Assembly (NCBI GenBank): GCA_964016885.1
Contig: OZ024751.1
Span: 2,666,001-2,730,000, forward strand
Direction: 5' to 3'
DNA: 64,000 bases
Source: Eledone cirrhosa
Lineage: Eukaryota
How positions within the stretch are numbered: the first letter of the stretch is position 1; each line of letters opens with the position of its first letter. The notes under the pieces were generated by a model. That model was not told the DNA's origin and did no database searches. It worked only from the letters and a program-made list of their open reading frames with translations. The translations under genes and the position numbers were made by a program. Of this stretch, positions 46,421 to 48,255 are shown piece after piece.

Positions 46421-46426
<6 letters not shown>

Positions 46427-48255
46427 CAAATAACGAAACGAAATTAAATTTCGTTTCGTTTGTAACTCACTTTTGTATGACTGACGCTTAAACGATTAAG
46501 TTAAAAAATGTACATCCACATATGTATACTGAAATACTAGTATGCATATGAATACACACACGTATACATATGTAGATGTACCAAGTCTTTCACTGGTCAC
46601 TTTACTGTCAGTGGCCAGCTATTCTGTATGTAAACACACAGACAAACCGGTTTATAGAGTCATACTGGTTTTTGAGGAAACACCTTTCCTCTATTCTCCA
46701 GAAAGCCAGACAAGGAATATTGAACTAGTTTCGTTGTTGTTACAACTCATCAGCAATATTTACCTATCTACCGGCCTTTCTGGAGAATCGTGAAAGCACA
46801 TATCGTTATATGCTTTTTCTATGAAAATTAGTAGTGGGCAGACTAATTTGCATAGAGTGTGAGTACGTACCTGTTCAACGGAGACGATAAAAACAAATAA
46901 CCAAACGAAATTAAATTTCGTTTCGTTTGTAACTCACTTTTGTATGACTGACGCTTAAACAATTAAGTTAAAAAATGTACATCCACATATGTATACTGAA
47001 ATACTAGTATGCATATGAATACACACACGTATACATATGTAGATGTACCAAGTCTTTCACTGGTCACTTTACTGTGAGTGGCCAGCTATTCTGTATGTAA
47101 ACACACAGACAAACCGGTTTATAGAGTCATACTGGTTTTTGAGGAAACACCTTTCCTCTATTCTCCAGAAAGCCAGACAAGGAATATTGAACTAGTTTCG
47201 TTGTTGTTACAACTCATCAGCAATATTTACCTATCTACCGGCCTTTCTGGAGAATCGTAAAAGCACATATCGTTATATGCTTTTTCTATGAAAATTAGTA
47301 GTGGGCAGACTAATTTGCATAGAGTGTGAGTACGTACCTGTTCAACGGAGACGATAAAAACAAATAACCAAACGAAATTAAATTTCGTTTCGTTTGTAAC
47401 TCACTTTTGTATGACTGACGCTTAAACAATTAAGTTAAAAAATGTACATCCACATGTGTATACTGAAATACTAGTATGCATATGAATACACACACGTATA
47501 CATATGTAGATGTACCAAGTCTTTCACTGGTCACTTTACTGTGAGTGGCCAGCTATTCTGTATGTAAACACACAGACAAACCGGTTTTTAGAGTAATACT
47601 GGTTTTTGAGGAAACACCTTTCCTCTATTCTCCAGAAAGCCAGACAAGGAATATTGAACTAGTTTCGTTGTTGTTACAACTCATCAGCAATATTTACCTA
47701 TCTACCGGCCTTTCTGGAGAATCGTAAAAGCACATATCGTTATATGCTTTTTCTATGAAAATTAGTAGTGGGCAGACTAATTTGCATAGAGTGTGAGTAC
47801 GTACCGGTTCAACGGAGACGATAAAAACAAATAACGAAACGAAATTAAATTTCGTTTCGTTTGTAACTCACTTTTGTATGACTGACGCTTAAACAATTAA
47901 GTTAAAAAATGTACATCCACATGTGTATACTGAAATACTAGTATGCATATGAATACACACACGTATACATATGTAGATATACCAAGTCTTTCACTGGTCA
48001 CTTTACTGTGAGTGGCCAGCTATTCTGTATGTAAACACACAGACAAACCGGTTTTTAGAGTCATACTGGTTTTTGAGGAAACACCTTTCCTCTATTCTCC
48101 AGAAAGCCAGACAAGGAATATTGAACTAGTTTCGTTGTTGTTACAACTCATCAGCAATATTTACCTATCTACCGGCCTTTCTGGAGAATCGTAAAAGCAC
48201 ACATCGTTATATGCTTTTTCTATGAAAATTAGTAGTGGGCAGACTAATTTGCATA
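46421..48255 (-). mobile_element. Family A second subfamily: ~3.9 tandem 467-bp units (HHRs 46716, 47183, 47650, 48117)
   Basis: Same period and identical HHR; diagnostic substitutions elsewhere in the unit. Confidence 0.93.

Follow-up and report, generated by a model that had tools for sequence, protein, structure and literature searches.

The 64,000-nucleotide stretch of Eledone cirrhosa DNA analysed here (the window; positions 2,666,001 to 2,730,000 of contig OZ024751.1) carries at 46422-48255 an array of tandem units which, by every feature testable in its sequence, belongs to the retrozymes without long terminal repeats (non-LTR retrozymes), a known class. The main new result is a rule that governs the ends of its family: in head-to-head insertions one arm almost always starts at a fixed site of the unit, S1, and the other arm at a second fixed site, S2, which refines the signature already known from Penelope-like elements (PLEs). 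Neither a strict rule of one site per arm nor a PLE footprint on a retrozyme was found described in the literature searched, older Penelope papers lying outside that search.

End sites of the retrozyme insertions

The ends were mapped on 144 insertions, a mixed sample made up of a genome-order subset of 35 together with hits chosen by best similarity or targeted by haplotype; five insertions are clipped at the edge of the fetched region. Among 236 ends corresponding to the RNA 3' end, 121 fall at S1, 101 at S2 and 14 elsewhere, and TA runs adjoin 207 of the 222 canonical ends, while the 45 RNA-5' ends are scattered. S1 and S2 lie about 70 nt apart and the interval between them equals the 'tail' of Penelope-type elements; S2 is internal in the array of the window and serves as an end in other insertions. 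Head-to-head insertions amount to 94 of the 144, of which 12 have one non-canonical end. The remaining 82 combine S1 with S2 in 79 cases, S1 with S1 in one and S2 with S2 in two, where independent choice predicts 41 mixed pairs (p 2e-20); in the genome-order subset the mixed pair is found in 19 of 19. One-way copies (n=45) start at S1 (31), at S2 (11) or elsewhere (3), and nine more copies that pass as one-way carry, as judged by eye, a short stub of the opposite site. TA microhomology is seen at both sites. Target duplications of 12-13 bp are clear in four insertions outside pure TA, these being the ones kept from 41 of 139 insertions flagged by an automated search, most of which are unreadable inside TA runs.

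The initial annotation had called for a tabulation of the junctions between element and (TA)n and had proposed a preferred priming point. The junction positions are indeed non-random and a fixed point exists, but it is not a single one, two sites being used, one per arm. Loose TA-joined ends at the equivalents of S1 (46887) and S2 (46956) also occur in contigs of run X1, which are not independent junctions because X1 may be the sample behind the assembly; low-depth contigs of runs X4, X7 and X12, which carry other organism labels (1, 11 and 1 contigs, with a depth of at most 5 in X4 and X12), were used neither as outgroup nor as evidence of spread.

Related elements end in a comparable way. 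A collinear sister family, about 70% identical and with 14,119 ribozyme matches, shows a long and a short end at homologous positions in 20 of 20 resolved inverted insertions, both ends being resolved in 20 of 54 loci and three loci with two calls but no facing pair having been left out of the table. Its units (L226-L295) measure about 466-538 bp; a TA run lies within them, the base of stem II is mismatched and the cut triplet is GUA or GUU. In the autonomous Penelope-like family to which the fragment at 40111-42763 belongs, 10 of 10 inverted copies carry a tail of 40-54 nt at exactly one end, three of its ends having been read by eye. Two short head-to-head insertions of other families with unequal ends, 29180-29970 and 46041-46338, lie between TA runs and apparently share the two-site build.

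The array of the window is a one-way insertion with a period of 467 bp (tandem-repeat span 46420-48255, 3.9 copies, 99% matches), unit starts at 46422, 46889, 47356 and 47823 and a 5' truncation at unit position 433. Its ribozyme-sense RNA corresponds to the minus strand, and we infer that the 3' end of the TA run at 46338-46421 primed its cDNA. The unit has no LTR, its ends being the S1/S2 junctions, and contains only short frames, none of which is kept between subfamilies; an open reading frame (ORF) for the reverse transcriptase (RT) and GIY-YIG endonuclease of an autonomous PLE was not found in the 467 bp. In the host genome of 3.0 Gb short arrays are dispersed over many chromosomes, an exact pattern around a hairpin of the unit giving 7,102 matches genome-wide and its reversed control none; the family is a young, abundant, non-coding mobile repeat.

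A second insertion in the window, 31860-36269, belongs to the same family (about 95% identical, 20 substituted positions in 467) and is built head to head, with an inner arm junction near 34270. The observation that both arrays end at the same nucleotide was borne out, the junctions at 46422 and 36269 being identical with a TA run beyond each, though the coordinate 36268 given for the latter was off by one or two. A 72-amino acid antisense frame, said to be disrupted in the array at 46422-48255, is indeed shifted there by a 1-nt indel; its coding value did not stand, as it lacks an ATG in the 32-36 kb units and a Pfam match, and it was rejected as a functional frame.

Table 1. Coordinates of the features in the window (strand. 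where neither strand applies)
Feature	Position	Strand	Remark
Retrozyme array	46422..48255	-	Majority (B) subfamily, 3.9 units x 467 bp
Start site S1 (unit 1-5)	46422..46426	-	RNA-3' end of the array; 121/236 RNA-3' ends
Start site S2 (unit 66-78, mostly 68 and 74)	46487..46499	-	101/236 RNA-3' ends
(TA)n target run	46338..46421	.	Adjoins the RNA-3' end of the array
Hairpin adjoining S1 (unit 12-38)	46433..46459	-	Also in sister family
Hairpin with compensated pair 178/191	46594..46617	-	
Hairpin of the initial annotation	46674..46691	-	Pairs 254/269, 257/266; repeats 47141-47158, 47608-47625, 48075-48092
Type I hammerhead, extended stem I, 5-bp stem II, minimal palindromic stem III	46700..46771	-	
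Short hairpin with compensated pair 447/457	46866..46880	-	
Head-to-head insertion, derived (A) subfamily	31860..36269	.	Left arm from S2 (31860), right arm from S1 (36269)
72-amino acid stop-to-stop frame without ATG	32413..32628	+	Not a gene
Penelope-like element fragment (RT and C-terminal region)	40111..42763	-	Inverted, one-end-tailed build; comparison, not shown as partner

Hairpin subfamilies, ribozyme and RNA structure

Between the two arrays a hairpin differs, reading GGGGGAA-CACC-TTCCCCC in 8/8 full units of 31860-36269 and GAGGAAA-CACC-TTTCCTC in 4/4 units of 46422-48255, and this swap, from which selection on RNA structure had been proposed, is real. It comprises double changes at unit positions 254/269 and 257/266; two more double changes between the arrays, at 178/191 and 447/457, had been overlooked. 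Written as the letters at positions 254, 257, 266 and 269, the array at 46422-48255 is AATT, the majority type: A stands at both 254 and 257 in 92 of 100 among the matches listed of 7,102 (by eye). AACT is represented by 59 units. The pattern A at 254 with G at 257 has 146 units, AGCT making up 97 of 100 among the matches listed, and G at 254 has 436 units, of which, by eye, 42 of 100 among the matches listed combine C at 266 with T at 269 and about half of the 100 listed are GGCC, the type of the 32-36 kb array. A rooted tree of 104 insertions orders these types AATT, AACT, AGCT, GGCT and GGCC (bootstrap 100, 84, 95 and 100). What had been read as four coordinated substitutions are instead four separate steps via amplified intermediate subfamilies, of which on the ribozyme strand the first is a G-U pair and the third an A-C mismatch. 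The direction of change, from A-T to G-C with AATT as the ancestral type, is only probable because it rests on a single outgroup, the tree being rooted by one relative of 89-93% identity. This relative (L100:167-1290) is a third subfamily with a GUC cut triplet, and it is joined to a GGCT-type arm via the common hairpin adjoining S1.

That selection acts on RNA structure is supported by genome-wide counts of lineage and private changes and not by the two arrays. On the rooted tree 30 of 36 stem changes of lineages, defined by three or more descendants, keep pairing vs 51 of 134 private ones (Fisher p 1e-6, a value that is partly circular as the structure was derived from the same alignment); with four single-sequence structures the same test gives p 0.023, 0.006, 0.0005 and 0.0001. 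Across 15 representatives of related families both partners change in 8 of the 33 pairs named, all eight lying in the ribozyme and the flanking stem and amounting to few independent events, and 92.9% of the cells pair vs 34-47% in slid controls; the shuffle control is beaten for cells and score, not for the number of pairs (126/500). The fold of the unit exceeds shuffles with z -10.7 on the ribozyme strand and z -7.4 on the other strand, and the circular fold is more stable on the ribozyme strand in 9 of 9 representatives. In the sister family the homologue of the hairpin has two G-U wobbles that pair on the ribozyme strand (by eye), and it was left out of the pair counts as the alignment is one column off there. 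For a double transversion at 313/324 no intermediate was sampled. ADAR-type editing was rejected as a source of the changes (47 vs 45 at the unit level, p 0.68; 14 vs 10 in lineages), private changes leaning towards A-to-G on the ribozyme strand (40 vs 23). A C-to-T change at unit position 277 (window 33470 and the 35059 region) recurs in several unrelated insertions and stands at mirror positions in both arms of the 32-36 kb array, as a hotspot or by conversion between arms.

The hammerhead is present as a type I core in each of the four units, which are a few hundred bp long, with the cores beginning at 46753, 47220, 47687 and 48154. Rfam HH9 matches 46700-46771 on the minus strand (E 1.5e-8, 38.6 bits) below its gathering score of 52, and no match in the whole 64-kb window reached gathering; the CUGANGA/GAAA core and the three stems are present, as in type I of Rfam clan CL00010. 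The cut is predicted after GUU, between 46723 and 46722, and the GUU triplet together with the minimal palindromic stem III suggests weak or dimeric cleavage, for which the axolotl hammerhead motifs described in PMC7229834 offer a comparison. Its 45 nt, reported as invariant, are identical in 12 of 12 aligned units, but this identity is not significant, 20 substitutions in 467 positions sparing 45 nt with a probability of about 0.13, and genome-wide it does not hold: in 14 insertions a T-A pair of stem II has become A-T by compensated change. No catalytic-core position changes in any lineage. The ribozyme is conserved in fold, not in letters, because pairs change on both sides across families.

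Integration mechanism and alternatives

The reading that we favour, at somewhat better than even confidence, is that a non-autonomous retrozyme is copied in trans by a PLE through twin target-primed reverse transcription of one RNA. Arrays would be transcribed, the hammerhead would excise monomers and these would circularise; a PLE dimer of RT and GIY-YIG endonuclease would bind one retrozyme RNA at S1 and S2 and make a staggered cut in (TA)n, whereupon both target 3' ends would be extended, one from each site, via 1-3 nt of TA microhomology. Each cDNA would run a variable distance, often beyond one unit, and the two truncated cDNAs would be joined tip to tip. Fold-keeping changes would be retained one step at a time because every new subfamily passes through an RNA stage. 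An anole PLE has been described to cut and extend both strands in vitro and to start at two internal sites between which the tail lies, with a dimer being predicted (PMC11167929, as far as its accessible text goes). The more specific proposition that the event is concerted, with an asymmetric RT dimer that grips one circular ribozyme RNA at two fixed points and rolls round it from both cut ends, is offered tentatively and may well not hold.

The arms themselves point to a common source. Of 77 insertions whose arms overlap sufficiently, 72 have arms that differ at no more than one subfamily site, compared with two or more differences in 246 of 278 arm pairs drawn at random. Of five insertions with discordant arms, two are same-site exceptions (the S1+S1 case and one S2+S2 case), and the remaining S2+S2 case is a compound of two subfamilies. 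In 21 of 73 insertions neither arm is contained in the other, a count that later array expansion in longer arms could distort, and the inner junctions are near-symmetric in 9 of 78, most overlapping or leaving a gap by a few bases, and arm lengths do not correlate, so that simple fold-back of the first cDNA was rejected as a general route. Unit variants are singletons in 168 of 198 cases, seven crossing the arms, and 205 of 242 arms run through the predicted cut site; singleton variants and this read-through fit a homogeneous circular or uncut template and are not proof of a circle. Periodic unit variants inside long arms (G000:C1:5738093, L070-L087; C5:14166427; C4:71728877) indicate array expansion after insertion. 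Inner, truncated arm ends seem clustered at unit positions 275-310, before the predicted cut, and 21-67, near the S1 hairpin, which is an impression without statistics.

Several points weigh against twin priming of one structured RNA. In the accessible text of PMC11167929 the strands were not seen to differ in start site in vitro and hammerhead cleavage is dispensable there. A PLE ORF in register with the unit was found in 0 of 143 regions, no autonomous partner being found in them. Two of the discordant-arm insertions are still S1+S2, and a correlation of arm lengths, which might be expected if both RTs moved together on one RNA, is absent (rho 0.10). Array length is no proof of a rolling circle because some arrays expanded after insertion. 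As regards structure, the A-C mismatch that one amplified intermediate has on the ribozyme strand speaks against strict constraint, and the strand preference within the family is weak (G-U vs A-C 11 to 9, and 16 to 7, in independently derived structures).

The strict asymmetry and the arms of the same haplotype would also be accounted for if a single priming on the sense RNA were followed by a jump to an antisense transcript, the stop at whose fixed 5' end would appear as the other site. Such a route is akin to the antisense self-priming proposed for head-to-head PLE structures (PMC3846280, in the portion of the article at hand), and the antisense strand also folds well (z -7.4); it is nevertheless unlikely, as one-way copies start at either site, TA microhomology is found at both, the positions are homologous in the sister family, the junctions are mostly non-palindromic and both sites are starts on sense RNA in the anole enzyme, according to the part consulted of PMC11167929. 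We give similarly little credence to two primings on two RNAs of one source locus, in which the order of priming or the protein subunit would determine the site and no circle is needed. Uncorrelated arm lengths and the two discordant-arm insertions that keep S1+S2 speak for it, and one active source per germ cell would likewise match the haplotypes; yet the same-site exceptions are those with mismatched arms, rare alleles are common to both arms in 14 of 77 insertions and many subfamilies of similar age coexist.

Less probable still, the ends may be points of endonuclease resolution in a DNA intermediate, to which the tail has been ascribed in the available text of PMC8557442, or the paired changes may reflect correction of hairpins by template switching, in line with a window rich in palindromes and with the double transversion at 313/324. 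Correction is at least not immediate because half-changed hairpins were amplified (the AACT units and those with C at 266 and T at 269), and the sister-family hairpin that pairs via G-U on the ribozyme strand only, as well as catalytic-core positions unchanged in every lineage, speak against it. Spread of ordinary satellite DNA by recombination, with hairpins arising by chance, is very improbable; local array expansion does occur, but the arrays contradict it, being short and dispersed over many chromosomes, with 3' ends that are fixed and 5' ends that are scattered, and carrying a conserved hammerhead beside target duplications, and the junction table already refuted it.

The proposed twin priming by a PLE can be set beside that of L1, in which cDNAs of one RNA are primed at both ends of the target and become joined through microhomology. 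There the upstream point at which the second primer anneals varies and the parts copied by the arms do not overlap, whereas both starts of the retrozyme are fixed, 70 nt apart, and its arms copy overlapping sequence.

Neighbouring elements and relation to known systems

The genome around the window abounds in (TA)n and in Penelope-like fragments that bear hammerhead motifs. The family of the fragment at 40111-42763, putatively Neptune-like, is very young, and it is probably active now because it has many near-identical copies and open frames of up to about 1,200 amino acids elsewhere in the genome. Neither in the window nor in 143 regions was sequence common to the unit and a pseudo-LTR (pLTR) of a PLE found, the PLE families of the genome not having been surveyed. 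A tblastn search with six retroelement fragments of the window against the retrieved regions returned neighbours and three ambiguous joins, involving both PLE types, and no in-register partner, the second type not having been searched genome-wide. In L046, L052, L160-L161 and L191 retrozyme arms run directly into PLE coding sequence or into a second hammerhead family; these joins might have arisen by template switching and could lead to the partner. Fragments of the second Penelope-like type, both 5'-truncated, lie at 30343-31450, which a TA run breaks off at the RT catalytic motif, and at 37116-37757. Other repeated hammerhead-like motifs, of at least five further repeat families, stand at 27210, 28732, 29389, 29843, 39977, 45804, 51059, 52208, 52635, 53990, 56989, 57741, 58174 and 61905. 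Long minisatellites with strong opposite GC skew extend over 2003-15035 (40-bp period) and 16427-24441 (19-bp period), and a fragment of a long interspersed element (LINE)-like RT with C-terminal zinc-finger motifs, presumably RTE-like, occupies 49268-50560 on the minus strand.

Metazoan non-LTR retrozymes have been described (PMC7229834) and linked to PLE pLTRs (bioRxiv 10.64898/2026.07.22.740005), the link consisting so far, in the text of the preprint at hand, of co-occurrence and pLTR similarity. The element of E. cirrhosa resembles them in being non-coding and tandemly repeated, in units of a few hundred bp that have one type I hammerhead each, and in its low GC content, strong self-pairing, thousands of copies and PLEs alongside; it differs in a unit at the upper end of the size range, in the proportion of head-to-head insertions (about two thirds of those sampled), in the (TA)n target and in the two fixed start sites. 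Inverted insertions, tails and covariation are not treated in the accessible text of either source, and the supplements of the preprint may list the family.

With PLEs, as presented in the accessible parts of PMC3846280, PMC8557442 and PMC11167929, the retrozyme has in common a 5'-truncated arm in inverted orientation, an extension confined to one end, targets that are AT-rich or (TA)n, target duplications near 10 bp and two internal RT start sites; unlike them it has no ORF, and its tail measures 67-73 nt vs 30-40 nt in PLEs. A tail at one of two inverted pLTRs was already known (PMC3846280, PMC8557442 and PMC8969392, in the portions available), being optional or frequent in PLEs, whereas in the retrozyme it is all but obligatory and bound to one haplotype of the template. 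Non-autonomous PLEs of Chlamys such as MRC1 (the consulted part of PMC8557442) are likewise multicopy head-to-tail insertions with a bias to microsatellites, but they have 3' sequence in common with an autonomous family, and canonical hammerheads are missing from most of them, while partner homology of the retrozyme was not found in the regions covered here.

The compensation in the hairpin is a genuine, though expected, mark of selection on RNA, and alone it would rank much lower in value than the end rule. The subfamily ladder nevertheless provides natural single-step intermediates for tests of compensatory evolution. The retrozyme carries the PLE integration footprint itself, and the end rule gives a hint of the way in which one RNA is copied by Penelope-type retrotransposons into the two ends of a DNA break; the text at hand of PMC8557442 lists among the tasks still open how PLEs build their tandem and inverted structures and come to choose microsatellites. 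One site per arm is moreover a sharp prediction for the existing in vitro PLE assay, in which the 467-nt RNA would be a small, defined template. If the concerted dimer holds true, the Penelope 'tail' would be the footprint of dimer geometry, each active site being bound to its own start, and animal retrozymes would be circular, structure-selected parasites of the PLE machine that preserve an unusually complete stepwise record of RNA compensatory evolution.
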